Positions 26,366-47,702 of a DNA stretch of 64,000 bases are shown one piece after another (positions within the stretch are counted from its first letter, which is position 1; each line of letters opens with the position of its first letter). The DNA is from Nitrospiraceae bacterium (GTDB lineage Bacteria; Nitrospirota; Nitrospiria; Nitrospirales; Nitrospiraceae). A program made the translations under genes and the position numbers. The stretch lies in assembly GCA_050246315.1 (NCBI GenBank), contig JBFWWG010000002.1, positions 192,001-256,000 of the forward strand, read 5' to 3'. Below the pieces are notes generated by a model. That model ran no database searches. It was not told the origin of the DNA and saw only the letters and a list, made by a program, of their open reading frames with translations.

Positions 26366-26646
26366 CCCACATTATTATTCATGACGGTTCGTCGCGAAAT
26401 TGTGGACTCGCTATGCCAGACGGGCACGCAAAGCCATGAGGAAGGGAGGCGGACTTGAAACAGTCTGTTGACTGACTGAACGGCGAGCCCGCCCGCCATA
26501 CCAAGCTTCGCTTGGGCCGGCGGCTCATCGGGCGCAGCCCGTCTTCATTGATGCCGCCGGAGAAACACCTTCAGCGATTCTTCCCCTTCTTTTCCATATC
26601 AAGCTTTGCTTGAACCGCCGCGTTCGATCACATCAATGCGGGCTAG
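26362..26646 (+). mobile_element. MITE-like element, copy A
   Basis: CTAG at both ends (26362-26365, 26643-26646), imperfect TIR CCC(A/G)CATT; first ~125 bp match the reverse complement of 42233-42357. Confidence 0.65.
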
Positions 26647-29403: not shown

Positions 29404-31440
29404 ATGCATAGCATAGAGGCCCGGCGCTTTGCATCAGGTTGGCGGCTGTTCATTCTCGTCACGCTGGTGCTCTTGGGAGCCTGCCGATCATCTCTGCCGG
29501 AATTGCCCATCATGCCCATCGAGCCTCCGCTGCCGCCCGGGCTCCGCATCGACCCGGCGGTCGCGCGCCTGGCTCGCCAAGTCGTCCCCCTGCTTGAATC
29601 CAACGTCGGCTCGCACAATAAGGCCACGCTCTTGGCGCTGACCGGGGCGCGCACCTTTCCCGCCATCGGGAAGCGTGGCGATGCCCTCGATATTCTGCTG
29701 GACCCCTGGCAAGGCATGACCCAACTGGAATCCTATGGGCTCCTCGTCAGCGCGCTCTCCAAACACGGAGTTGAGGGGTTGGACGACCTGCTGCTGACCT
29801 TGGAGAAGAGCCGAATCAAACCGGACCATGAGATATTGGCGACCAAGCGGCTCGGTGGTAGCGAGAAGGCCGCCGGCGATACGTTGGCCGCGTTGCTCGA
29901 ACAAGTGAAACACCATTGCGAACGCGCCATGCGGCGGCTGTCGACTGAAGACCGCCAGTTTCTCTTTGACCACGCGATGCGGTTTCTCGATGATTTCAGT
30001 CCCCAGTTTACGGATCCTGACAGTCAGACAAAATTTCTGCTCTACAGCAACCGGCGCTTTATCCAACTCATCCAAGAGTATGTGGATTATGATGCGCTGG
30101 TCACAGCCGCCCAACTCGCGACGAAACTGGGAAGCATGGACTTGCTGCGTAACCTCAACGAATCCCTCCGCACAGGCGCTAAGGTCAAGAAACCGCCGGA
30201 GGGCGTGAAGGGGGATGTGCTGCTGGTTCGCGAGACTACGGCCGGCACCATTGTGGTGGGAGGGCCTGGCTCCAACACCTACCAACTCGACGGCCGGATT
30301 GCCTTGATCATCGACCTCGGCGGCGACGACGTCTACCGGGGGGTCATCGCGGCGTCGGGTCATGCGGAACAATCCGTCCATATCGTGATTGATCTGGCAG
30401 GCAACGACGCCTACTCCCCCAGCGTGCCGCTCGGGTTGGCGACAGGACGAGGTGGCATCGGGCTCCTCATCGACAAGTCCGGCAACGACAGTTACGAGTT
30501 ATCCGAAGGGTCTGGAGGAACCGGATTTGCGGGGATCGGCCTCCTGTACGATGAAAACGGAAATGACATCTATACCGGTTCCAAATTCACCCAAGGCGCC
30601 GCGATCGGCGGGTTGGGGCTGCTCCTGGATGTCGAAGGAGACGATCAGTACCAAAGCTTCGGTTATGCGGTCGGCTTCGCTGGACCAGGCGGCATCGGGG
30701 TCGTCGCCGACCTGTCGGGCCACGACAATTACCAATGTGGACACAAATACTCGAGCATATACAATGCCGTCGATGTCCCCGACGGTGATCGCAGCAGTCC
30801 TCTGTATCAGTTCGAATGTTTCGGCGTCGGAGTCGGATCAGGCATCCGCGTCCTCTCCAAGAACCAGGATGATCTGGCCTATGCCCTCGCGGGCGGTCTC
30901 GGAATGTTGCTCGAATTGGAAGGGGACGACCATTACCAGACGGCTAACTTTTCTCAGGGGACCGGTTACTTCTTCGGCACCGGGGTCAAGTTGGATTTAG
31001 GAGGAAACGACGACCACTTGGCCGCCCGTTACGGGATTGCAGCCGGAGCGCATTATGGAGCCGGCCTCTTCATCGACTATCAGGGGGCGGACTACTACGA
31101 CTCGACCGGCCCCCATTACAACGCGGGCGCCGCCTGGGATGCGAGTGTCATGCTCGGAATCGACGCCGGATCGGATGACGACATCTATTCCTTCGAACGT
31201 TCCAACGGTTTGGGAATCAGCCAACACAATGCCTGGAGCGCCTTTATTGAAGAAGGCGGGAAGGATCGTTACCTGGTCCCACGCGGGCTTGGGGTGGCCG
31301 AAGCCGGAAGCGTGGCAACCTTCTTCGATCTGGCAGGCGCCGACTACTATGCCCGCACCTTCCCCGCCGGCAGCGGCAGACGCAACAACCAGGAGACGGT
31401 CTCGGACAGTCCCGGGTCTCTGTTCGTCGATCGCCAGTGA
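29404..31440 (+). CDS. Large lipoprotein with about 12 D-x-x-G-x-D-x-Y repeats
   Basis: LLGAC lipobox; DLGGDDVY, DLAGNDAY, DKSGNDSY, DENGNDIY, DVEGDDQY, DLSGHDNY etc. Confidence 0.75.
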   Translation: MHSIEARRFASGWRLFILVTLVLLGACRSSLPELPIMPIEPPLPPGLRIDPAVARLARQVVPLLESNVGSHNKATLLALTGARTFPAIGKRGDALDILLDPWQGMTQLESYGLLVSALSKHGVEGLDDLLLTLEKSRIKPDHEILATKRLGGSEKAAGDTLAALLEQVKHHCERAMRRLSTEDRQFLFDHAMRFLDDFSPQFTDPDSQTKFLLYSNRRFIQLIQEYVDYDALVTAAQLATKLGSMDLLRNLNESLRTGAKVKKPPEGVKGDVLLVRETTAGTIVVGGPGSNTYQLDGRIALIIDLGGDDVYRGVIAASGHAEQSVHIVIDLAGNDAYSPSVPLGLATGRGGIGLLIDKSGNDSYELSEGSGGTGFAGIGLLYDENGNDIYTGSKFTQGAAIGGLGLLLDVEGDDQYQSFGYAVGFAGPGGIGVVADLSGHDNYQCGHKYSSIYNAVDVPDGDRSSPLYQFECFGVGVGSGIRVLSKNQDDLAYALAGGLGMLLELEGDDHYQTANFSQGTGYFFGTGVKLDLGGNDDHLAARYGIAAGAHYGAGLFIDYQGADYYDSTGPHYNAGAAWDASVMLGIDAGSDDDIYSFERSNGLGISQHNAWSAFIEEGGKDRYLVPRGLGVAEAGSVATFFDLAGADYYARTFPAGSGRRNNQETVSDSPGSLFVDRQ

Positions 31441-34733: not shown

Positions 34734-35144
34734 ATGGATATTCCCGCAACGATCGTGAAGGTCGTCAAGAGCGATGAGCAATGGCGGCAATCGTTGACTC
34801 AAGAGCAATATCAGGTGCTGCGCAAGGAAGGCACCGAACGGGCCTTCGTCAACGCCTATCATGATAACAAACAGGCCGGCATCTATCACTGCGCCGGGTG
34901 CGACCTCCCCCTCTGGTCCTCCGAGCAGAAGTACGACAGCGGCACCGGCTGGCCGAGTTTTTGGCAGCCGATCGCGCCCCACGTCGTCGCCACCAAGACC
35001 GATTTTCACCTGCTCTATGCCCGCACGGAGGTCCATTGCGCGCGATGCGACGGCCATCAAGGGCATGTCTTCAACGACGGCCCCAGGCCGACGGGGCTCC
35101 GGTATTGCATCAATTCGGCCGCGATCAAGTTCGTCCCGTCGTAG
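34734..35144 (+). CDS. msrB: Peptide-methionine (R)-S-oxide reductase
   Basis: [31 protein letters not shown]. Confidence 0.95.
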
Positions 35145-35166
35145 AAGAGGGGCAGAAAGGAGATGA

Positions 35167-35282
35167 GAAGTCTTATTCAGGGCCTCATTCCCTGGCGATT
35201 AGGAAAGGTTTTCGTGGCAACGCCAAATTATTGAGACTTGGCGGCTCGACGAGCCCCAAACATTGAATCCCGACCCCATTTA
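35167..35282 (+). repeat. 116-bp repeat R1 (ends CCCGACCCCATTTA)
   Basis: Ungapped hand alignment to 40164-40279 gives about 88/116 identities; 3' half also matches 35654-35709. Confidence 0.75.
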
Positions 35283-35452
35283 TTCGACCCCCGGATCTCA
35301 TCCTCGACGACGGTCAGGTACTCGCGAATGGCGTCCTGGATGTTCTGAATAGCCTCCTGCTCCGTCGCGCCTTGGGACCAGCATCCAGGCAGGCCAGGAA
35401 CCGAGACCGCGTAGCCTTCCTCCGATTTGTGAAGGGCGATGCGGTATTTCAT
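35228..35452 (-). pseudogene. hicB: HicB-family antitoxin, apparently 3'-truncated and reading into repeat R1
   Basis: MKYRIALHKSEEGYAVSVPGLPGCWSQGATEQEAIQNIQDAIREYL; after IRG the frame continues into repeat-derived sequence; no hicA seen. Confidence 0.7.
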
Positions 35453-35597
35453 GGTGAACCTCTTTGTGGCAAATCCATCTTGGCCGCCGTTGCGAGGCAA
35501 TGCTTCGCTTGCGGGCCGACTTGAGGACAGTGTATGTATCCATCCAGCGAATGTCCAGGCCAGATGGCCCCTGTGTGGTGTTCGCAAGCGGTGTGGG

Positions 35598-35709
35598 GAG
35601 GTTTAGTGAGGGCTCTAGTTCATGGTGAATAGGGAGTGTTTCCGCGAGGGCGGACTATTGAGTCCTGATATCTCGACGAGTCCCAAACAATGAGTCCCGA
35701 CCCCATTAC
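35598..35709 (+). repeat. ~112-bp repeat R2 (ends CCCGACCCCATTAC)
   Basis: TATTGAGTCCTGATATCTCGACGAGTCCCAAACAATGAGTCCCGACCCCATT matches R1/R3. Confidence 0.7.
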
Positions 35710-35715
35710 TATCAC

Positions 35716-35792
35716 TCTTCAACGACGGCCCCAGGCCGACGGGACTCCGGTATTGCATCAATTCGGCCGCGATCAAGTTCATCCCGTCATGA
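35716..35792 (+). repeat. 77-bp direct-repeat copy of the msrB 3' end (35068-35144)
   Basis: Near-identical; encodes [24 protein letters not shown] versus ...KFVPS* in msrB. Confidence 0.92.
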
Positions 35793-35889
35793 AACTCAGA
35801 ATGCACGTCGTCGAACGTAGTCATGCAGTGATACGTTCCCTATCCATGACGGTTCGTGACACTCTACCCGTTTGATGCACAGAGTAGAT

Positions 35890-36071
35890 GGACGAGAACA
35901 CACGACAGCACTCTTGCGCCCGCGGCGGGGTGAAGCCACGACCGGCTTGATGGGATAGCACCTTATCCATATTCCGACTCCACATTCTCAGCAAGCGACG
36001 CCAGGATATGAAACACTGTCGCCCAGGCCGAAGGCGGCATGAATTTCCTCCACCCTTGCCAAATTGCTCAT
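35890..36071 (-). pseudogene. Decayed SnoaL/NTF2-like gene following an attC
   Basis: GGAGG SD, MSNLARVEEIHAAFGLGD, frameshift to ILASLAENVESEYG*, then WL..PRRGRK fragments. Confidence 0.5.
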
Positions 36072-36104
36072 CTCATGTCGCCTCCGTGGTAACAGATTCT
36101 TGGC

Positions 36105-36164
36105 GCCCAACGGTGGAGTTAATTTGCGGCGCGTAGTGCCGTCGACTTCAACGACTTGTTAGAC
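36105..36164 (-). mobile_element. Integron attC site (60 bp)
   Basis: Minus strand: R'' GTCTAAC, 5 nt, L'' GTTGAAGT, central hairpin, L' AATTAAC, 6 nt, R' GTTGGGC; lies 27 nt past the sirtuin stop. Confidence 0.8.
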
Positions 36165-36191
36165 CCCACTGATTGCGGGGCGCTACTCCCG

Positions 36192-39100
36192 TCACTCTCG
36201 CATGCCGCACCTCCGGAAGTATTCACTTAGTCGCTGGTATCGGGCATCTTGCGCAAGCTGTGGCGCAGCTTGCACGATCTCGTCCAAACATTGCCCCAAC
36301 TCTGGGGGCGCCCACTGTTGATCGCCAATCACAGCATCTAACAGACGCAGAGCATCTGCCGGGAATCGTGCGGACAACCCTGATTCGTGCAGTCGATGTA
36401 CGACGTAATGTGGATGTTCAATGGGTTGCAGCCAGTCTTGCACCGCAGTCAAAGCAGCGGGAAATTCAGTTCGGGCAGCAATGATCAGCCGGGTCAATGA
36501 CTCGCCGATTCGCGGCGTGGCGAGGTTGCGGGACTTGGGCCAAACGTGTTGCCAGAACGGCTGGACCCGGTTCTTCCAATAGTCCTCGCGCTGGTCGGCG
36601 GCTCCTTCTAGGGCCTGAGACAGCGCCTGTGCGCATTCTTCCAGCCCTTCTTGAGGCAGCGCTCCAATCGCAGATCGGAACTCATCCACGGTGTAGCCCT
36701 CGGTCGGCCCGAGCGCTGCGTAAGTCAGGAAAGCTGCGAACTGCTGGCGGTCTTCGCCTAGGTCAGCGTAGTAGTTTGCGCTCTCCAGGAACTGCGGTTT
36801 GAACGCAATCAGCAAGGGCTGATACAAGCGTGGCGACCACAGGAAACCTTCCCACACGGCTTTTGCTTCAACCGGATTGCTCCAACTGAACAGCGGCAAG
36901 AGGTGTTGCTCGGCCCAAGCGCGATCAACGCGGAAGATCGCGATCAATCGCGAACCCAGCAGCACTCGGCCGTGGCGGAACCGATCCACCTGCACATCGC
37001 AGATTTCCGTGAAGAAGGGCTTGATGTCGGTTGGAAGCTGATCGTTGTCGTTCGGATTGCGTTTGAACCAAAGGTTGATCAACGCCTGCGTGACATGCCC
37101 GACCGGATGATTGATGGCTTCGGTAACAGACTGCTCAATCGGTTCCCCATTGCGAGTCATCCCGGTGCCTGCTTCGAGTGGCAGGGCCAGAACTCGGTGG
37201 CACAGGTTCAACAGAATTTCCTCGTGCAGATTGATCGACTTTGAAATGGTCTCAATCCACCACGTCACACCGTGGGCAATCTCCTGAAGCACGGCGTCGG
37301 GCATGGTCTGTACCAGAGGCGCGGCGTAGCGCCACATACGCTGAACCTGTTTCCCATTGCCCCATGCATACAGTGCATCACTCCAGCGACTTTTAAGCCA
37401 ATTTCCCTGCGCAGCCAAATCAGCGAGAGCGAACAAGCAATTCAAAGGGTGCTTTTTGCAGACATCACGCCATGTGTCCTCGTGGAACGGCCGCCGTTCG
37501 GGTTGTGGCTTTGTAAGCCATTGAACGAGTTCACGCCGCTTTCGAGGTGCGATGTCGACATCCCGGCTTTCTTCATAGTCTGGATCGCCAGTGCCGCTCA
37601 TCCAGTGGGAAAACTCGTCACGCTCGTTGGCTGCCACCTGCCATTGCGGGTAGGCATTGGACAGTTCCGCCAAGCGCGCCGCTGCGGGTACCCCCAGGGC
37701 GAGGTCCGAGGCATTCAATTTGGCCAAATGTAGCCAGACTGAACGAGCCACCAAGTCTTGCCACCGTTCCGGTCCCAGATCATCCCGGTACATCTCGCGC
37801 GGCGGGCCGGCCAAGATGGCGGCCTCCAGACGTTCCTGAGCGGCTCCTGCCAATTGGCGCCCCTGCAGAACGAACAGTCTGAACACCTCCCGCCCCGTAT
37901 CGGTGGACCACAGCCACCAGGCGCCATCGGCCAGCAGCCAATCCACCCACTGCTCGGGTGCGATGCACGCCTCCTGGCTGGCAGCAAACAGGGCCAGGCG
38001 CTTGAAGGTGGGATACGGCAACTCGAACCAGGCCTGGGCAATCCGCCTCGCACGAGCACTGTCATTACCGCGAAGCGCCAGCCACGCATCGCGCAGCAAT
38101 TCGATCAGGCTCACCCAGTCGCGGAAACCCCGGTTCTGCCAGTGTGGGGTAATGGACGGTAGATCCCAGTGCGATCGGTCGCTGCGGTCGTCGGCCTCAC
38201 CAAGCTCGCGCAACAAGTCCAGCGCATCACGTAGCAGTTGCTGAAAATCCTCCAGCAGTTGCGGCAAGGCGGATGTCCAGTGCTCGCCGGCAAGGTCGCG
38301 CAGGGCCGAATGCACGTGATTGGCGACCAGCACCAGCTCCCAATCCACCAGTTGCCGCAAGCGCGTGGGTTCGCCCGTGTTCTCTTCCTCGTCGCCCCAA
38401 CGAAACGGCTTCTTCAAGGCCACCTGGGGGGCGAGCAGCTCACGCAACTCCAGGCGCAGCGTGGTGGTCAGCCCCTCCCGCTTCAGCCGACCTTTCCATT
38501 GATAGAGATCGGGATCGTGCCACACTTTTTTCACCCGGCCACTGAGCAGCAGACGCCACAGTGTGCGCATCAAGGGGCCAGGGATGGCCTTGGGCGCCTG
38601 TAAGCGGATTTCATCCCGTTCGGCGGTCTTGCCGTCACGCTCCAGCAAGGCAAAGCGGTCCAGTTCGTCCTCGATCAGCCGCGGCCAGCGGTCATGCAAC
38701 TGGCCGCCACGTTGCGCGATCCAGATGACCAGCCGCGGGTCATCCAGATGGCGCGTGAGCCAGCGGGCCAGATGAACCATCACGTCGTCCCACTGGCTGC
38801 CGGTGACGCCACCGGAGGCCAGCAGCATCGGTGGCGCGCGGTCATAGGGCGCTGGCCGGCGAATCAGGCTGAAACGCAATTTGGCGTCTGCCTCGTCGCG
38901 TGACGGCACGCCGAAGCGAGCCAGATCGCTGTGCTGAAAGCGTTCGTCCGAGAAGGCCTCCAGCAACCAGTCCAGCGAAGGGACGGGGTTGAAGTCGGCA
39001 AAACGTCTGGCCGGCAGTCCCGATTTGTCCGACAAGGCCCACAACATCCGGCCGACGAAATCGTCTTGTTGCGTGCTTGCCGAAGGCCGTGCCAGGGCGT

Positions 39101-40022
39101 GGCTGACGACGATGCGCTCCTTGCCCAGGACGCCGTCGCGGTAGGTGTCCGCCCAGGCGTGCAAGGTTTCATGGAGTGCCGAATGGTCATGACTGCCAGT
39201 GGGTACTTGGTAAAGGATGGGCGTGACGCCCTTGGCTTCCCACTCGATGGTCTTGCGGTGTTCCTGCCCCGGCTCGCAATCGCCCAGCGCCCAGGCTTGC
39301 GGCGTGACTTCGCCCAACATCCGGTCGGCGGCCAGCGCATCCATCATGTAGCGCAACACCGGATCGTTGATGCTGTAGCCCACGAAGCAGACCACGTAGT
39401 TGCGGAACAGCTCGCTGACAAAACGGGCGGCCCAGCGTTCGGTGAGGTAGGCCAGGCCGAAATCGCCGCTGGTGACCACCAGCCGGTTCAGGGCCGTGTC
39501 GTCCTCTTTTTCGGGCAGCAGGCCGTGCAGGTAGACCAGCCCGTTCCAGCGGCTGTTCTTCGGGATCGGCAACATCGGCGCGGCATAGGCCTGGAACGCT
39601 TGGCCTGTGCGCTTAGCCGCCGTATGAAACACGCGGTCGAAGTTGGTGGTGACGAGCCGCAGCGCGCCGGCGCGGCTGCGCGCCAGCCGCAACAGTGCCG
39701 CCTGCGTATCGGTGGCACCCTTGCGGCGCAACTGGGGTTTCAGTGCCTGCGCCAGTGCACGGCGGACGGCCAGCCGCTGCCCAGGCAGGCGCTGCTCTAG
39801 CCGGTCGAGCGTGGCGTCGAACTGCCAACGGTCGAATGCCTCGCGCTCGATGTCCGAGAGCGCTGTGCTGTTCAGCTGGTAGATTTTCTCCACCAGCCCC
39901 TTGAAGTCTGGCAGGCCGGCGGGGTACGAAATGCCCGCGCCGCAGAAAAACACCACGCGACCTTCCTCGTGCGCCTGCAAGAGCGCATCCGGAATATCGG
40001 GGCCGTAGGTGATGAATTGCAT
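36192..40022 (-). CDS. dsr1: Defence-associated sirtuin, Dsr1 type (SIR2 NADase + long helical C-terminus)
   Basis: VFFCGAGIS, TTNFD, YLHG, FVGYSIND SIR2_2 motifs within the first ~230 aa of a 1276-aa protein; N-terminus MQFITYGPDIPDALLQAHEEGRVVFF recognised as Dsr1-like. Confidence 0.8.
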   Translation of the reverse strand: MQFITYGPDIPDALLQAHEEGRVVFFCGAGISYPAGLPDFKGLVEKIYQLNSTALSDIEREAFDRWQFDATLDRLEQRLPGQRLAVRRALAQALKPQLRRKGATDTQAALLRLARSRAGALRLVTTNFDRVFHTAAKRTGQAFQAYAAPMLPIPKNSRWNGLVYLHGLLPEKEDDTALNRLVVTSGDFGLAYLTERWAARFVSELFRNYVVCFVGYSINDPVLRYMMDALAADRMLGEVTPQAWALGDCEPGQEHRKTIEWEAKGVTPILYQVPTGSHDHSALHETLHAWADTYRDGVLGKERIVVSHALARPSASTQQDDFVGRMLWALSDKSGLPARRFADFNPVPSLDWLLEAFSDERFQHSDLARFGVPSRDEADAKLRFSLIRRPAPYDRAPPMLLASGGVTGSQWDDVMVHLARWLTRHLDDPRLVIWIAQRGGQLHDRWPRLIEDELDRFALLERDGKTAERDEIRLQAPKAIPGPLMRTLWRLLLSGRVKKVWHDPDLYQWKGRLKREGLTTTLRLELRELLAPQVALKKPFRWGDEEENTGEPTRLRQLVDWELVLVANHVHSALRDLAGEHWTSALPQLLEDFQQLLRDALDLLRELGEADDRSDRSHWDLPSITPHWQNRGFRDWVSLIELLRDAWLALRGNDSARARRIAQAWFELPYPTFKRLALFAASQEACIAPEQWVDWLLADGAWWLWSTDTGREVFRLFVLQGRQLAGAAQERLEAAILAGPPREMYRDDLGPERWQDLVARSVWLHLAKLNASDLALGVPAAARLAELSNAYPQWQVAANERDEFSHWMSGTGDPDYEESRDVDIAPRKRRELVQWLTKPQPERRPFHEDTWRDVCKKHPLNCLFALADLAAQGNWLKSRWSDALYAWGNGKQVQRMWRYAAPLVQTMPDAVLQEIAHGVTWWIETISKSINLHEEILLNLCHRVLALPLEAGTGMTRNGEPIEQSVTEAINHPVGHVTQALINLWFKRNPNDNDQLPTDIKPFFTEICDVQVDRFRHGRVLLGSRLIAIFRVDRAWAEQHLLPLFSWSNPVEAKAVWEGFLWSPRLYQPLLIAFKPQFLESANYYADLGEDRQQFAAFLTYAALGPTEGYTVDEFRSAIGALPQEGLEECAQALSQALEGAADQREDYWKNRVQPFWQHVWPKSRNLATPRIGESLTRLIIAARTEFPAALTAVQDWLQPIEHPHYVVHRLHESGLSARFPADALRLLDAVIGDQQWAPPELGQCLDEIVQAAPQLAQDARYQRLSEYFRRCGMRE

Positions 40023-40078
40023 TCCTTGTGTTTTCTATCCAATACGCGCGTGCATTCGAGCGACTGAGAGCTCAGTCG

Positions 40079-40138
40079 GTCGAACACTCCCATTGAACGG
40101 CGCCGTGAAGCGCGCCGACCTCGCCCACGTGATTAGGC
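40079..40138 (-). mobile_element. Degenerate attC-like site (60 bp) upstream of the sirtuin gene
   Basis: Minus strand GCCTAAT-CACGT-GGGCGAGG-TCGGCGCGCTTCACGGCGCC-GTTCAAT-GGGAGT-GTTCGAC: same 7/5/8/20/7/6/7 spacing as 36105-36164 but L boxes pair poorly. Confidence 0.5.
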
Positions 40139-40163
40139 GTCGAGCGAAGCAGATGCAGGGTCG

Positions 40164-40279
40164 GAGGTCTTAATCAAGTCCTATCGCCCTGGTGAATTGG
40201 AAATGTTTTCGTGACATCGGCAGATTATTGGGTCTTGGCGTCTTGACGAGCCTCGGAAAATGACTACCGCCCCCATTTA
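40164..40279 (+). repeat. 116-bp repeat R3 (ends ACCGCCCCCATTTA)
   Basis: Homologous to R1 and R2. Confidence 0.75.
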
Positions 40280-40359
40280 ACCATGCAGTTGTTTCAACTG
40301 GGTTTTGACGTCATAATGCGAGTTGTATAGGATCTTAGCCCTTTAAGGGGGAGGACGAT

Positions 40360-40560
40360 ATGTCGACGGCGGAACGCATTTTCAAAGAAGCACAGAAACT
40401 TCCCGATAGGCTAGCGGAAGAGGTACTGGATTTTATCAAGTACATTGAACTGAGGCACGGACTGAGAGACCGACTCACTGAAGAACTGAAACGGGCGCAG
40501 GAACCGGCCATGCGCCATGTGTGGGACAACATCGAAGACGAGGTTTGGGATGGCGTGTAA
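40360..40560 (+). CDS. DUF2281-like putative antitoxin
   Basis: LPDRLAEEVLDFIKYI and C-terminal WDNIEDEVWD; GGAGG SD; overlaps the toxin start. Confidence 0.7.
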   Translation: MSTAERIFKEAQKLPDRLAEEVLDFIKYIELRHGLRDRLTEELKRAQEPAMRHVWDNIEDEVWDGV

Positions 40561-40888
40561 GCCCGGCGATCTTGTTTTGATTCCATTTCCGTTCTCCGAT
40601 CTGCAATCGACGAAGAAGCGCCCTGTAATGGTCTTAACCGCACCGGATCGACATGCCGACTTCATTGAATTGGCCCTCACTTCGGTCCCGCAGCAGACCC
40701 ACGCCCTTCAAGTTGATTCAGCCAGCATGACGGAAGGGATACTCCCTAAACTGTGCTGGATCAGGTTCGACAAAGTCTTCACCCTTTCCGAGAGCAGCAT
40801 CATCAAAACCTTTGGTAAATTATCCTCACAGACGTTGCAGAGCGTGTTGCAAGGACTCTGTTCTGTCGTGGGATACGGTCCCAGATAA
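40550..40888 (+). CDS. PemK/MazF-family toxin
   Basis: GDLVLIPFPFSDLQSTKKRPVMVL, LTS, IRFDKVFTL. Confidence 0.85.
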   Translation: MACKPGDLVLIPFPFSDLQSTKKRPVMVLTAPDRHADFIELALTSVPQQTHALQVDSASMTEGILPKLCWIRFDKVFTLSESSIIKTFGKLSSQTLQSVLQGLCSVVGYGPR

Positions 40889-40963
40889 CCCCGATTCGAC
40901 GATGTCACCACCGCTTGCCTCCCTGCTCGCGGTTTCTTCACGAACCGTCACGAATAATGTGGA

Positions 40964-42118: not shown

Positions 42119-42357
42119 GCGCGCATTATTCATGAACGCTGTTATTGCAATTGCGGATTCGCTGCTGGGCACCCATTGCTCCAAGATTGCAATGGGTCCC
42201 GGCCTGCGTGCGGAGTTTCAGCACGCAAGAGAGCGGGCTCGCCGCTCGGTCGGTCAACATACTGTTTCAAGTATGCCTCCCTCCTTCGCGGCTCCACGCG
42301 CCCGTCTCGCGACGCGACCCCACAATTTCGCGACAAACCGTCATGAATAATGCGCGC
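42119..42357 (-). mobile_element. MITE-like element, copy B (239 bp)
   Basis: Perfect 17-bp terminal inverted repeats GCGCGCATTATTCATGA (42119-42135) / TCATGAATAATGCGCGC (42341-42357); no credible ORF; similar to copy A. Confidence 0.75.
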
Positions 42358-42477
42358 CGCATATCGTGAAATGCTGTCACCGGCGCCGGCGGCGCTCGGC
42401 GAGATGTCCATATCGGCTTCGACGACTGAAGTCAAGAACGAGCTGTCTGGATGCGCTCCACGAGCAATCGACTCGTC

Positions 42478-43359
42478 CTATCCCTCCTCCGATCGAGCAG
42501 GCGAGATCACTTCGTACAGTGCGGAATAGTCCGCATCGCCCCATCCTTGACCGACGGCCTCAGATATGAGTGATCGCACTCCGTCCAACCCGCCGGTCTG
42601 TAGATTCAGACTCTCCGCCGCTTCTCGGCAGAGATCGATGTCCTTCAACAGATGCCGAGCGGAGAAATTCGGATTGTCGTACTGCCGGTTGAGGAGCCGC
42701 GGTAATTTCTTCTCGAACATGGGTGCGAACAACGCACTGTCGCGCAACAGCGTCATGAACGATTCCACCGGAACACCGGACCGTTGAATCATCGCCAAAC
42801 TAAGTGACAGGGCCGCGATATGCGAGGCGATCAATTGATTGAGCGCCAGCTTCACCAGAGCCGCCCGTCCGACCGGTCCGATCCAGCGAGGGTGAGGGCC
42901 GAAGCAGCCTAACAACCCCTGCCATGCGGCAAACTGTTCGGGGCTCGCTCCGACCATCACGAGCAGCCGACCTTCCTTCGCCTCGGCAAGGCTCCCAAGA
43001 ACCGGAGCCTCCAGGTAGTCGCCACCGAGCGCGGCGATTTTCCGCCCGCAGGTACGGCTTTCGTCGGGACCGATCGTTCCCATCTGGATCACGGTCTTTT
43101 CGTTCAAGACCGACGGTCCATCCAACAGATCCAACACGGCATGGATCGCCTGCGCATCCGCCAGCATCAGGATGATCACCCGTGCCTCCTGGATCGCCTG
43201 GATGGGATGTCCGGCCACCGGTATCCCTTGTCGCCGCAGGTCCTCAACCTTCCGACTCGTTCGATTGTAGAGACGCACGTCGTAGCCGCAGGCCTTGAGA
43301 CGCAGCGCCAACGGCCTCCCCATCAATCCTCCGCCCAGCACAGCAACCGTTACTGACAC
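42478..43359 (-). CDS. 3-hydroxyisobutyrate dehydrogenase-family NAD(P)-dependent oxidoreductase
   Basis: GGGLMG, YNRT, EAPVLGS, KLALNQ, KDIDL. Confidence 0.88.
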   Translation of the reverse strand: MSVTVAVLGGGLMGRPLALRLKACGYDVRLYNRTSRKVEDLRRQGIPVAGHPIQAIQEARVIILMLADAQAIHAVLDLLDGPSVLNEKTVIQMGTIGPDESRTCGRKIAALGGDYLEAPVLGSLAEAKEGRLLVMVGASPEQFAAWQGLLGCFGPHPRWIGPVGRAALVKLALNQLIASHIAALSLSLAMIQRSGVPVESFMTLLRDSALFAPMFEKKLPRLLNRQYDNPNFSARHLLKDIDLCREAAESLNLQTGGLDGVRSLISEAVGQGWGDADYSALYEVISPARSEEG

Positions 43360-43371
43360 GGCACCCTCCGA

Positions 43372-44166
43372 TTACTTTGGCAGCAACGCAATGACCCGCA
43401 CCGGTCCTCCGCTCCCGCCTTTGATCTTCATCGGTAACAGGATCAGCGTGGCGCCCTTCGGGGGAAGCCTTTCCAGATTGGCGAGGTTCTCCAAGCCATA
43501 GAGGTTTGCTCCGTTGACAACCTGGTGAACAATAAAATCTCCCGACGGCCCATGGTCTATGCTGGCCGTGTCGATGCCGATTCCGTCGATCCGACGCTCC
43601 GTCGTCAGATAGGCCGCTGCCTCCTTGGAAAACCCTGGAAAGTGCAGAGTGGCGGCGTCGTCGGGCGTCATGCTGCCCAGGTAGGCCGATCGGTCCGGCC
43701 AGAAGCGCCCCCAGCCGGTTCTCATCAAGACAATCGCTCCATCGGGAATCCTGCCATGAGCCTGCTCCCAAGTTCGGATGTCGTCGATCGTCATGCGATA
43801 GTCCCGATCCTGCCTCGCCGCCTCCGACACATCGATCACGACCGCGGGACCGATCAGATTCTGAAGCGGGATGGCGTCCAACGTCATCCCTTCCTTGGCA
43901 AAGTGAATCGGAGCGTCGAGATGCGTTCCTCCATGCTCCGCAGTACAGAATTGCGCCGAGGCGTACCAGTATCCCCCCGGGGAGGAACCCCACGAAGTCT
44001 GTTCCCAAGCGAAGGGCTTGTTGTGGGGCCAGTAGATCGTCTGTTCATCGAAGGGATAGGTGAGGTCAATGAGAGTCCGCTCATCAAGCTCGGCCAAAGC
44101 CGAGGACGCGAGCACGACCATCAAGGCCAGACTCATGAGAACGGACCGATCAATCGTTCGTGCCAT
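43372..44166 (-). CDS. Secreted cyclase/kynurenine-formamidase-family metallohydrolase
   Basis: EHGGTHLDAPIHF, GIDTASID, ENL, GGSGGPVR; signal peptide. Confidence 0.85.
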   Translation of the reverse strand: MARTIDRSVLMSLALMVVLASSALAELDERTLIDLTYPFDEQTIYWPHNKPFAWEQTSWGSSPGGYWYASAQFCTAEHGGTHLDAPIHFAKEGMTLDAIPLQNLIGPAVVIDVSEAARQDRDYRMTIDDIRTWEQAHGRIPDGAIVLMRTGWGRFWPDRSAYLGSMTPDDAATLHFPGFSKEAAAYLTTERRIDGIGIDTASIDHGPSGDFIVHQVVNGANLYGLENLANLERLPPKGATLILLPMKIKGGSGGPVRVIALLPK

Positions 44167-44256
44167 GGTGGCTCCTTTGCACCTGTTCTCAACGTCCCGC
44201 TCACCACAGACCGACGGGGCTGGCAGCAGCGTGATCGCCTATGCTACTTCTCTTCC

Positions 44257-45441
44257 ATGGTGGATGTCTCGCCCTCCGCTTCTCTTTCCGACTCTCTCTC
44301 TGGCGCCAGAGTGCCTGTCACCTATCAAATTAGAGGAGACGAGTCTCACGCGCGACGGCAGGCCGATCTCATCTGCATCGACCAAACGGTGGAAGCAGCC
44401 GAGGAGGTCATCCCAGCCGGACCGATACGGGATCAATTACTCGGCCGCATCGAATCGTTCGACAGAGTTGGAGAGGACCGGTGGAGCGCCACGATCAGTT
44501 TCCCGATCGAGCTGGCAAAGGCTGACGCCGTGGACCTGCTTCATCTGCTGTACGGCACGACCAGCCTCAAGAGCGGCATTCGTGTCACAAGCCTCGACCT
44601 GCCGGAACAGGGGCTCGACGGCTGGACCGGCCCGCGCTTCGGACAGGCCGGCCTCAGAACGCTCCTGGGAATCCAGCACCGCCCCCTGGTCTGTGCTGTT
44701 CTCAAGCCACTGGGCCTGTCGACACGAGACCTCGCAGTGCTGGCCTATCAATTTGCCCTCGCAGGAATCGATCTGGTCAAGGACGATCAAGGGCTCAACG
44801 ACCAGCCCTTCTGCCGTTTTGAAGATCGAGTGCAGGCTTGCGCGGAAGCAGTAACCCGTGCCAATCGTGAAACCGGACAGCACTGCCTCTACGCTCCGCA
44901 CATCGGCGCGGCCCTCCCGGTAGCCAGGGATCGCGCCCTCTTTGCGAAAGCCAGCGGAGCCGGCGCCCTGCTCATCTGTCCGGGACTTACAGGGTACGAG
45001 ACCTTGCGCCTGCTGGCCGCCGATCCGGAGATCACGCTGCCCCTTCTGAGTCACCCAGCTCTCCTGGGCACCTATGCCATCAACTCCGATACCGGTTTGG
45101 CCCCTGCACTCCTCTATGGCCAACTCCCACGCTTGATGGGAGCAGACATCAGCCTTTATCCGACCTACGGTGGCGACTTTGCCATGACCAGCGCGGATTG
45201 TCGGGCCATCGCGCGCGCAGCCTCGACCCCGTTCGGTGGGACCAGATCGATGTTTCCCAGTGCCGCCGGCCGGATGGGCTTCGGACAGATTCCGGAGATC
45301 GCGACATTGTATGGACCGGACGTGGTGTACATTCTCGGAAGCCGCATTCAGAAACATCCGGACGGCCTTGTGAACGGCTGCCGTCAGTTCATTCAGGCGA
45401 TCAGCCGACCCTCGTCCTCAGACCGACCGTCCTGGTCATGA
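44257..45441 (+). CDS. RuBisCO-like protein (form IV)
   Basis: GPRFG..GLR, LKPLGL, IDLVKDDQ (KDDE variant), HPA, PSAAG; ATG 44257 is in frame with the long ORF. Confidence 0.85.
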   Translation: MVDVSPSASLSDSLSGARVPVTYQIRGDESHARRQADLICIDQTVEAAEEVIPAGPIRDQLLGRIESFDRVGEDRWSATISFPIELAKADAVDLLHLLYGTTSLKSGIRVTSLDLPEQGLDGWTGPRFGQAGLRTLLGIQHRPLVCAVLKPLGLSTRDLAVLAYQFALAGIDLVKDDQGLNDQPFCRFEDRVQACAEAVTRANRETGQHCLYAPHIGAALPVARDRALFAKASGAGALLICPGLTGYETLRLLAADPEITLPLLSHPALLGTYAINSDTGLAPALLYGQLPRLMGADISLYPTYGGDFAMTSADCRAIARAASTPFGGTRSMFPSAAGRMGFGQIPEIATLYGPDVVYILGSRIQKHPDGLVNGCRQFIQAISRPSSSDRPSWS

Positions 45442-47702
45442 CTCTCATGGCACCTTCCGCCATCACGCCCGAGTGCCGCCGCACTGTTCCGGCCCAGCGG
45501 GCAGGACGGCCGCGAGTCCTGCTGATTATTCCTCCTCTGACCCAGCTCAATACGCCATATCCCTCCACTGCGTATCTGACAGGATTCCTGCGGTCACGCG
45601 GCTATGAGGCGTTTCAAGCCGACCTTGGTATCGAGATGGTTCTCTCCCTGTTTTCAAGGAAGGGACTGCAGGAGGTCTTCGAGACCATCAGGCGGCAGTC
45701 GAGTGACCTCCCGGGCGAGGCCAGACAAATGCTGGCGCTCGAACAGGCCTACGTCAACTCGATCGATGAAGTCGTCGCCTTTCTCCAGGGTAAGGACCCC
45801 TCTCTTGCCACGCGCATTAGTCAGGGCCGATTTCTCCCGCAGGGACCCAGGTTCGCTCGGCTTGCGGATTCGGACGAACAATCAGCCGCACTGTCAACCC
45901 TGGATCGAGCCAAATATTTGGCGACTCTCTACCTCGAGGATCTTGCCGACCTGATTCATGAAACCGTCGCCACGCAGTTTGCACTGAGCCGATACGCCGA
46001 GCATGTCGGAACCTCGGCTTCATCCTTCGATCAAGTTTTCCAGTCCCTCTCCGCCGCTCCATCCTTGACCGATCGCCTGATGCTTCAGGCCCTGGCTCAA
46101 CATATGACATCAGTTCGTCCCACGCTGGTCGGATTGACGGTACCTTTTCCGGGCAACCTCTACGGGGCCTTTCGCATCGCCCAATGGCTCAAATCCAACC
46201 ATCCGACCATCACCGTTGCGCTGGGCGGCGGCTATGCCAACACGGAACTCCGCCGTCTTCAAGACCCGAGGGTCTTCGACTATGTGGACTTTGTGACGCT
46301 GGACGATGGAGAAAAGCCGCTGTTGTATCTCCTGGAACACCTATGCGACCGGCGGGCGGTATCGTCGCTCTGCCGAACCTATTATCGGACGCAGAGCCAC
46401 GTGGTGTTTGCGTTCAACCATTCTGAGCCGGATTTGTCCATCCAGGAGGTCGGCCCGCCAACCTACGACGGACTTCCGCTCGATCGCTACTTGTCGATCC
46501 TCGACACGACAAACCCTATGCATCGCCTCTGGTCCGATGGTCATTGGAACAAGTTGACCGTCGCCCACGGGTGCTACTGGAAGCGTTGTACGTTCTGCGA
46601 TGTCGGGTTGGATTACATCGGCCGTTATGAAGCGACGGCCACCGATGTCTTGCTCGGACGCATCGAGCGGTTGATCCAGGAAACGGGCCGCCGCGGATTC
46701 CATTTTGTGGACGAAGCCGCGCCACCAGTCTCGCTCAAGTCGCTTGCGCTCAGATTGCTCGAGAAAGGCCTGACCATCTCATGGTGGGGGAACATCCGAT
46801 TTGAGGAAGCCTTCACGCCGGACCTCTGCCGGTTGCTGGCGGCTTCGGGCTGCATCGCCGTCAGCGCCGGTCTTGAGGTGGCCTCCGATCGCCTGCTGGC
46901 GAAAATGGACAAGGGCATTACCGTGGATCAAACGGTTCGGGTGGCAGCGGCCTTTCGGCAGGCCGGCGTCCTCATCCATGCGTATCTCATGTATGGATTC
47001 CCAAGCGAGACGATCCAGGAAACGATCGACAGCCTGGAACGGGTCCGACAACTCTTCGCCGCAGATCTGATTCAATCCGCGTTCTGGCACAGATTCGTCG
47101 CCACCGCTCACAGCCCGATCGGCCTCGATCCGGCAAGCCATGGCATCACGATTCTCGGACCGTTACATAAAGGGTTTGCGGAGAACGATCTGGTCTATGA
47201 AGATCGCTCGACCTTGGTACCCGATTGGCTCGGGCTCGGCCTTCGCACCGCACTCTCCGCTTACATGGAACGGCAAGGATTAGCAAGACCGGTGCATCGC
47301 TGGTTCACCCACCGCGCACCTGCGACGACCGTCTCAGGCGATTGGATCGCCTGCGCGTTGCGCGCGTCTTCGAAAACCGGCCGTTCCCTCGCCAATCGCA
47401 ACCGTCGCCTGATCTGGATCGGTGGACAGCCGGTCATCGAGCGGAGCGACACACAGACTTGCATCGTCATCCTTCCGAACGTCACAGAGGATCGTCGCCT
47501 CCGTCTGAACAGACCTCAGACGGATTGGCTGCGGGACTTGCTCGGAAGTGCGACTCCCCGGAGCCAGCAACCATCGGCGGCATACCGGAAACTGGCGGAG
47601 GTGCGAGAGACCTATCCGTTCGGTGGCCCCGCGGCGTTCGACTCCTGGTCACGGAAACGCGCCTGGCAAACGATCAGACAGGCTGGCTTGCTGTTGATCT
47701 GA
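45438..47702 (+). CDS. B12-binding-type radical SAM protein
   Basis: PLTQLNTPYPSTAYL, LGGGY, GCYWKRCTFC, FVDEA, HAYLMYGFP; ATGA overlap with the RLP gene. Confidence 0.85.
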   Translation: MTLMAPSAITPECRRTVPAQRAGRPRVLLIIPPLTQLNTPYPSTAYLTGFLRSRGYEAFQADLGIEMVLSLFSRKGLQEVFETIRRQSSDLPGEARQMLALEQAYVNSIDEVVAFLQGKDPSLATRISQGRFLPQGPRFARLADSDEQSAALSTLDRAKYLATLYLEDLADLIHETVATQFALSRYAEHVGTSASSFDQVFQSLSAAPSLTDRLMLQALAQHMTSVRPTLVGLTVPFPGNLYGAFRIAQWLKSNHPTITVALGGGYANTELRRLQDPRVFDYVDFVTLDDGEKPLLYLLEHLCDRRAVSSLCRTYYRTQSHVVFAFNHSEPDLSIQEVGPPTYDGLPLDRYLSILDTTNPMHRLWSDGHWNKLTVAHGCYWKRCTFCDVGLDYIGRYEATATDVLLGRIERLIQETGRRGFHFVDEAAPPVSLKSLALRLLEKGLTISWWGNIRFEEAFTPDLCRLLAASGCIAVSAGLEVASDRLLAKMDKGITVDQTVRVAAAFRQAGVLIHAYLMYGFPSETIQETIDSLERVRQLFAADLIQSAFWHRFVATAHSPIGLDPASHGITILGPLHKGFAENDLVYEDRSTLVPDWLGLGLRTALSAYMERQGLARPVHRWFTHRAPATTVSGDWIACALRASSKTGRSLANRNRRLIWIGGQPVIERSDTQTCIVILPNVTEDRRLRLNRPQTDWLRDLLGSATPRSQQPSAAYRKLAEVRETYPFGGPAAFDSWSRKRAWQTIRQAGLLLI

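Follow-up and report, generated by a model that had tools for sequence, protein, structure and literature searches.

Three direct copies of a 116-nt sequence at the joints of an accessory island beside msrB in Nitrospira: possible ends or sites of a trans-mobilized element

Introduction

Elements that integrate at tRNAs or at the 3′ ends of genes, as in tycheposon-like arrays, can form tandem islands with partial attachment-site copies between them. IS26-type units form direct arrays in which repeats and segments alternate, and a unit is added beside an existing copy with no target duplication; IS26 itself is 820 bp long and encodes a transposase. Members of the Tn3 family end in terminal repeats of 38–48 nt, which start with GGGG and finish in ...ACGYTAAG. 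Miniature elements derived from Tn3 that bear inverted repeats (TIMEs) are characterized, in one report (PMC4133298), as non-autonomous, low-copy, and mobilized in trans; the same report mentions genomic segments carried between two same-orientation copies, and TIMEs that sometimes have 3′ portions of different genes at their flanks. Among chromosomal integrons, many cassettes encode defence systems, according to a preprint (bioRxiv 10.1101/2024.07.02.601686), and two clusters of integron recombination sites (attC) that lack an integrase are noted for Ca. Nitrospira inopinata in another article (PMC9024848). Here, we describe a 116-nt non-coding sequence, R, which is present in three direct copies (R1, R2, and R3) in an accessory island beside the msrB gene. 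The island lies in 64,000 nt of Nitrospira chromosomal DNA (GenBank GCA_050246315.1, contig JBFWWG010000002.1, positions 192,001 to 256,000 of the forward strand), hereafter the window, and all coordinates are those of the window.

The R locus shares traits with these systems and departs from every one of them. In integron arrays, as here, direct repeats of about 60–140 nt punctuate small modules rich in toxin–antitoxin and defence genes, the cluster may lack an enzyme, and the R island itself contains a true attC. Integron attC sites carry RYYYAAC/GTTRRRY cores, which R lacks, and paired R/L boxes, for which folding of R gave no support; the genes at this locus lie upstream of "their" R in the attC sense, and the cassettes start with truncated genes. 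R shares the GGGGTCG tip with three of five Tn3-family ends that were read, and has an inner motif resembling theirs and AT-rich bases just outside the tip, whereas similarity to the 38-nt repeat above that of shuffles, an inverted partner, a 5-bp duplication, and tnpA were not found for R in the window. Tandem islands separated by attachment sites likewise display imperfect direct repeats, one sharp boundary, and cargo beside a conserved gene, and the duplicated 3′ end of msrB (the repeats m and m′ described below, not R itself) recalls elements that integrate into 3′ ends. Unlike the repeats of such islands, R belongs neither to msrB nor to another recognizable gene or RNA, and no integrase or remnant of one was found in the window. 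The direct repeat–segment–repeat–segment order is that of IS26 arrays, from which R differs in being 116 nt long and non-coding.

We consider that R most likely belongs among mobile-element ends or attachment scars and is not yet evidence for a cassette system. Within that range, we tentatively favor, at a probability of roughly 40%, an interpretation of the three copies as solo ends or attachment sequences of a trans-mobilized, non-autonomous element that stacks cargo-plus-R units by msrB.

Results and Discussion

A repeat search of the window aligned R1 and R3 as a gapless 116-nt pair with 76% identity and delineated a 52-nt core common to all three copies (77–83%). Over 116 columns, the identities are 88/116 for R1–R3, 78/116 for R1–R2, and 73/116 for R2–R3 (63–76%). 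A profile built from the three copies recovered them from the 64 kb at E values of 2e-36, 1e-35, and 1.3e-32 (nhmmer), and no fourth copy was found in the window, where the next best score had an E value of 1.2. The copies begin approximately 430 and 4567 nt apart (427 and 4570 nt for the in-register 52-nt core), lie in direct orientation with common boundaries, and have six unrelated flanks. Each begins with GAAGTC... and ends in ...CCCCATT; the shared right end reads ...GACCCCATT, and similarity stops abruptly past CCCCATT. The right boundary is sharp, since only 1–6 of the 18 columns beyond it are identical between copies. The left boundary is softer because 7–8 of 17 flanking columns are identical there, and similarity fades more slowly. 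The preliminary description of this DNA, which was made from the sequence by eye, had the place, size, orientation, and sharp end of these repeats right, together with the gapless pairing of R1 and R3 at about 76%; as it also stated, units of 116 nt at such spacings are not an array of clustered regularly interspaced short palindromic repeats (CRISPR).

The guanine-plus-cytosine (GC) content of the copies is 0.48–0.52, compared with 0.594 for the window, and this AT-richer composition fits imported or mobile DNA. Differences between the copies are spread over the codon phases (13/10/11, 13/11/6, and 11/17/11) and show no codon periodicity, as previously proposed. No real homologue was found when a profile of the protein from the longest open minus-strand frame of R was searched against 1.84 billion representatives, its two matches both being tandem-repeat or adapter-like artefacts. 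A 69-aa open reading frame (ORF) running over R2 likewise returned no candidate homologues in a protein search. On these tests, R is non-coding. An Rfam 15 scan of the window returned two tRNAs only, with no match around the three copies at E ≤ 10 and none at the gathering level. Several short blocks are conserved within R, including a CTCGACGAG palindrome, and no promoter- or terminator-like site was found inside it. R is a real, discrete, junction-forming repeat, and every inference that follows draws on three copies at one locus.

The accessory stretch spans approximately 7 kb between msrB and a 3-hydroxyisobutyrate-dehydrogenase-like gene (42478–43359), and its features are collected in Table 1. 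Pfam, PADLOC, and repeat searches reproduced the order of modules that had been read from the sequence: msrB, hicB fragment, msrB copy, dsr1, and toxin–antitoxin pair. All three sharp ends of R join unrelated DNA, which in two cases is a broken gene. With truncated genes abutting two of the three sharp ends, the CCCCATT end acts like a repeatedly used breakpoint, and the earlier view of R as a discrete unit at joints is upheld. Downstream of R3, a promoter-like site at 40305–40333 accompanies the DUF2281/PemK pair.

Table 1. Coordinates of R copies and neighboring features in the window
Feature	Position	Strand	Basis or remark
R1	35167–35282	+	116-nt repeat, 22 nt past msrB stop; sharp end ...GACCCCATTTA
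R2	35597–35709	+	most diverged copy; 3-nt deletion
R3	40164–40279	+	116-nt repeat
msrB, intact	34734–35144	+	Pfam SelR, E 9.4e-51
m, last 77 nt of msrB, duplicated downstream	35068–35144	+	repeat search
Filler TTCGA between R1 and cut hicB	35283–35287		7 nt (TATTCGA) if R ends at ATT
hicB′, codons 1–55 of 65-codon Nitrospira HicB	35288–35452	−	Pfam HicB_lk_antitox, profile 1–49/123; C-termini of relatives
hicB upstream region	35453–35596	−	appears native to hicB loci; by eye against N-terminally extended relative P0033
m′, second msrB 3′ end with stop codon	35716–35792	+	8 nt right of R2; 73/77 against m
Decayed stretch without intact gene, position of next integron cassette	35793–36104	−	
attC, canonical, 60 nt, GTCTAAC...GTTGGGC	36105–36164	−	directly downstream of dsr1
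dsr1, SIR2-domain defence gene	36192–40022	−	PADLOC Dsr1, 2431.8 bits
Possible decayed attC or attI-like site, GTCGAAC...ATTAGGC, 60 nt	40079–40138	−	inspection; weak
Toxin–antitoxin pair: DUF2281-like antitoxin, PemK/MazF-like toxin	40360–40888	+	Pfam

The joint between R1 and hicB′ illustrates how the sharp end meets a gene. HicB relatives of 65 aa, which are 82–93% identical, share the native C-terminus ...EDEIRGQDVREIEVAV, and the window gene matches them only to G55, keeping 55 of the 65 native codons; its ORF then continues through the filler into R1 and stops at 35228–35230. The same hicB–R1 fusion tail occurs in protein P0002, which comes from another sample and is 99% identical; the joint is therefore an inherited one and no assembly error. 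The proposal that hicB is cut at R1 thus stands. The accompanying claim that the core of R recurs past R1 does not, because the CCCCC at this joint is native hicB sequence (codons R54–G55), which offered micro-homology at most. On the minus strand, the joint (35274–35292) reads GGGGGTCGAATAAAT, then GGGGTCGGGATTCAAT, and then GGGGCTCG 20 nt on, giving three GGGG(Y)CG words spaced 15 and 20 nt, which could be a slipped terminal unit or chance from the native hicB C-run.

HicB of the 65-aa type is represented by 7284 proteins at E ≤ 0.001, with at least 81% identity in 117 of the best 120. The nearest source-named relatives are mostly Nitrospira, and a few N-terminally extended forms differ in upstream context. 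The abundance and diversity of 65-aa HicB in Nitrospira-derived data suggest a multi-copy or mobile toxin–antitoxin module.

A second repeat, m/m′, brackets exactly R1–hicB′–R2. The repeat search equated 35068–35140 with 35716–35788 at 97%; read through the stop codon, the copies agree at 73 of 77 positions and differ by two synonymous changes, one V→I substitution, and TAG→TGA. Such differences would be expected if m′ were the end of a second functional msrB allele from a related strain. The bracketed stretch measures 571 bp (35145–35715), or 648 bp repeat to repeat, and its sole gene is hicB′.

To act on R, an enzyme would have to work in trans, because no integrase, recombinase, transposase, or HUH domain was found among the 59 window ORFs that were scanned, in which Phage_integrase, intI, DDE_Tnp_Tn3/tnpA, and Y1/Y2 transposase gave no match. 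As far as the window shows, this agrees with the trans-acting enzyme of the preliminary description. Folding of the R copies was close to that of shuffled sequences (z −1.4 to +0.85 as RNA and −1.3 to +0.5 as DNA), and the covariation terms of the consensus folds were positive, at +0.45 and +0.89 kcal/mol, and thus do not favor a conserved structure. Consensus folds and shuffle z-scores therefore revealed no conserved hairpin in R; they make a weak test, given that even the true attC at 36105–36164 reaches only z −0.9. Terminal inverted repeats were sought by comparing the left 60 nt with the reverse-complemented right 60 nt, and none were found: all copies score 12, below the shuffle mean of 13–14, with 789–902 of 1000 shuffles scoring at least as high. 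As had been stated, R is not a miniature inverted-repeat transposable element bounded by such repeats.

Copies elsewhere were sought with the motif GACGAGN{9,11}TGANTNCCGNCCCCATT, which has 20 fixed bases, in one genome per species for 185,579 species. This strict scan returned four loci outside the window, all due to chance, in which the R profile aligned to the pattern part only (E 0.15–1.3); because 20 bases are fixed, the scan misses diverged copies, and absence elsewhere is weak evidence. Comparison of R1 with plasmid and phage collections (blastn) gave no match at E ≤ 1. In the literature on Nitrospira integrons, islands, miniature elements, and msrB integration, we found no description of R, and words of 11–12 nt from its tip gave only unrelated eukaryotic and viral matches.

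The tip itself offers one lead. Read on the minus strand, GGGGTCG is identical to the tip of three of five Tn3-family inverted repeats read from plasmids. Further in, R3 has ACGCCAAG at positions 34–41, compared with ACGCTAAG at positions 31–38 of the Tn3-family repeats; this inner motif, displaced inward by 3 nt, is matched at 7/8 positions in R3, 6/8 in R1, and 3/8 in R2. The set compared is limited in diversity, because a protein search intended for diverse Tn3 transposases returned the Tn21 subgroup only. We regard the apparent Tn3-family likeness, seen in these few bases, as a lead only.

Our favored interpretation can be stated as follows. R would be a conserved end or attachment sequence belonging to a small mobile unit without an enzyme gene of its own, and its active end would be the ...GACCCC(ATT) side (on the minus strand, GGGGTCG...). 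The enzyme, encoded at another place in the genome, would have acted on this CCCCATT end repeatedly, producing a head-to-tail stack: msrB–R1 / hicB′...R2 / msrB′–decayed cassette–attC–dsr1...R3 / toxin–antitoxin pair. Each block would then comprise an arbitrary, often truncated left end, cargo, and a precise R at its right end; the left neighbor would be native to R, and only the right end would be the site of action. Candidate routes include one-ended or rolling-circle mobilization, joining of a circular cargo-plus-site unit beside an R already present, and end-directed adjacent deletions, and three copies cannot tell these apart. The cargo between the copies, dsr1 and toxin–antitoxin genes, is accessory and foreign; that a dedicated enzyme cut or recombined the R end is what we infer.

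A number of observations weigh against this interpretation. Terminal inverted repeats are absent, as is an inverted partner end: the profile search found no inverted R copy in the window. Inspection revealed no clean target-site duplication flanking any copy, and the 5–8 nt fillers at the joints have no explanation. The sharp end of R3 faces an apparently intact toxin–antitoxin operon with no truncated gene. When the R tip was aligned globally with the five Tn3-family repeats, 73–500 of 500 shuffles reached the observed score. All three known copies lie within 5.1 kb and none elsewhere in the 64 kb, and the strict-motif miss and the enzyme-less window count on the same side. The R copies differ by 24–37% and m/m′ by 5%, so the stacking events would have to be of very different ages. 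Finally, a duplication such as m/m′ is seen more typically with a tyrosine-recombinase element of the kind that substitutes a new 3′ end for that of its target gene.

That last point underlies the strongest alternative, which we judge possible though unlikely: R1 and R2 could be attachment-site arms of a decayed tyrosine-recombinase element that targeted the 3′ end of msrB, with R3 an arm left by an older element. The rebuilt attP would be R2–8 nt–m–22 nt–R1, approximately 340 bp. The 77-nt m/m′ repeat, with a stop codon in both copies, brackets R1–hicB′–R2 in the classic signature of 3′-end integration, the allele-like differences fit a replacement end borne by the element, and the conserved short blocks of R, including the CTCGACGAG palindrome, are possible protein-binding sites. 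The bracketed element, however, is only 648 bp long and has no integrase, which is also missing from the 59 window ORFs. It is unusual for attachment arms to be direct repeats of each other over 116 nt, no msrB fragment lies next to R3, and a further deletion would be needed to explain the truncation of hicB at R1.

A history with no enzyme at all appears less probable still. The 116-nt sequence could have been duplicated passively, by illegitimate or homology-facilitated recombination following DNA uptake from other Nitrospira. The 5–8 nt fillers and the C-run at the hicB joint are as in illegitimate joints, m′ resembles an msrB allele of a related strain, and neither an enzyme or supported structure in the window nor copies elsewhere, in the strict motif scan and the plasmid and phage collections, were found. 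Random breakpoints would nevertheless have difficulty in producing three copies with different neighbors and a right end that is identical to the nucleotide.

We give rather little weight to a more specific proposal, in which R is a non-integron cassette recombination site of Nitrospira with its recombinase encoded elsewhere. Circular cargo-plus-R units would be joined at CCCC/ATT and occasionally at pseudo-sites in genes. Such a system would build stacks of toxin–antitoxin and defence genes and swallow ready-made integron cassettes.

One such cassette does appear in the island. The preliminary description had overlooked the integron attC at 36105–36164, which is the only intergenic match of a strict RYYYAAC/GTTRRRY core scan of both strands of the window; the one other match, at 29719, is coding. 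Over 56 nt, it shares 85.7% identity with an attC that separates the oxidoreductase and qacG2 cassettes in a class 1 integron carried by an E. coli plasmid. Since its top strand is the minus strand, like dsr1, the two compose a textbook cassette. The site at 40079–40138, 25 nt left of R3, has each core one base off the consensus and unpaired L boxes, and may be a decayed attC or attI that bounds the dsr1 cassette upstream.

DNA homology of the dsr1 block to plasmids spans 36155–40072, with a nucleotide identity of 81% for a plasmid of Ralstonia solanacearum, 77% for Shewanella plasmids, and 70–77% across records from Shewanella, Pantoea, E. coli, and Nitrosococcus. Its GC content reaches 63–69%, compared with 59% for the genome. 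These similarities point to horizontal acquisition of dsr1, probably by recent transfer across phyla. Because dsr1 carries its own canonical attC, it was first assembled as an integron cassette, and the block therefore arrived as a fragment of an integron array assembled elsewhere. The earlier claim that R accumulates defence cargo is weakened accordingly: dsr1 does lie between R copies, with a canonical attC of its own. On the other side of the attC, no homologue was found for the decayed stretch at 35793–36104, and none of its five open pieces had a Pfam match at E ≤ 10, so the SnoaL label that had been proposed found no support.

With a true attC at 36105–36164 and a possible decayed one 25 nt from R3, R might itself be related to integrons, being either an unusual attC or attI that an integron integrase recognizes or a non-coding cassette present in several copies, but we regard this as improbable. 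In its favor, minus-strand R3 begins right after GTTAAAT, which fits GTTRRRY, and attC clusters without an integrase occur in Ca. Nitrospira inopinata according to the article cited above (PMC9024848). R1 and R2, however, read AATAAAT and TAGTAAT where R3 reads GTTAAAT, RYYYAAC/GTTRRRY cores are absent from the R ends in the strict scan, no attC follows R1 or R2, and the window contains no intI. R as a canonical attC was dropped after the strict core scan, in agreement with the preliminary description; a loose, energy-ranked scan was swamped by coding regions and left the true attC unranked.

The preliminary description had put forward a RAYT/IS200-like HUH enzyme; this suggestion, taken here to include IS605 and IS91-like enzymes with R as their target or end, fares slightly worse. 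Blocks with one end precise and the other variable are what rolling-circle, one-ended mobilization would be expected to give, and HUH elements also lack terminal inverted repeats and target duplication. R nonetheless showed no conserved hairpin, with covariation of +0.45 and +0.89 kcal/mol and z near 0, folds no better than shuffles in this weak test, and is accompanied by no HUH or Y1/Y2 transposase in the window. Any resemblance of the GACCCC end to HUH-type ends is presumptive.

Least likely of all is a cis-regulatory or small-RNA module upstream of accessory genes, since the conserved short blocks and the minus-strand placement of R2 144 nt before hicB and R3 141 nt before dsr1 are countered by R1 pointing into the msrB 3′ end, by unrelated intervening sequences, and by the lack of any Rfam match, supported structure, or promoter- or terminator-like site inside R.

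Other features of the window

A separate 239-bp element occupies 42119–42357, between a DUF900 gene and the dehydrogenase gene, and is bounded by 44-nt inverted repeats that are 73% complementary, with tips GCGCGCATTATTCATGA.... The motif ACGAACCGTCAYGAATAATG occurs four times in the window at no more than three mismatches, against 0.03 expected. One occurrence (42333–42352) is the right arm of the 239-bp element, and the others are solo copies at 40940–40959 (+), 26373–26392 (−), and 35838–35857 (−). A 97-aa ORF that overlaps the 239-bp element, at 42142–42435, is probably no real gene.

Beside lon, a 678-aa ORF (29404–31440) without a Pfam match has internal direct repeats of 51 and 38 nt and is a repeat protein of no recognized type. 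In the region 43525–47702, the start of an 834-aa radical-SAM/B12-binding ORF is overlapped by another ORF, whose C-terminal part contains a RuBisCO large-chain catalytic domain and whose length of 638 aa, counted from a GTG start, is probably overestimated.

Conclusions

If R is only a local scar, the locus amounts to ordinary island archaeology. If R works as an end or site, nitrite-oxidizing and comammox Nitrospira would assemble islands of defence and toxin–antitoxin genes without a local recombinase, and R would be a sequence tag by which such islands could be located. The locus also places a full-length Dsr1, as an integron cassette, in a Nitrospira chromosome beside a housekeeping gene. 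In this setting, the dsr1 cassette helps to trace the movement of defence genes between Proteobacteria and Nitrospirota.

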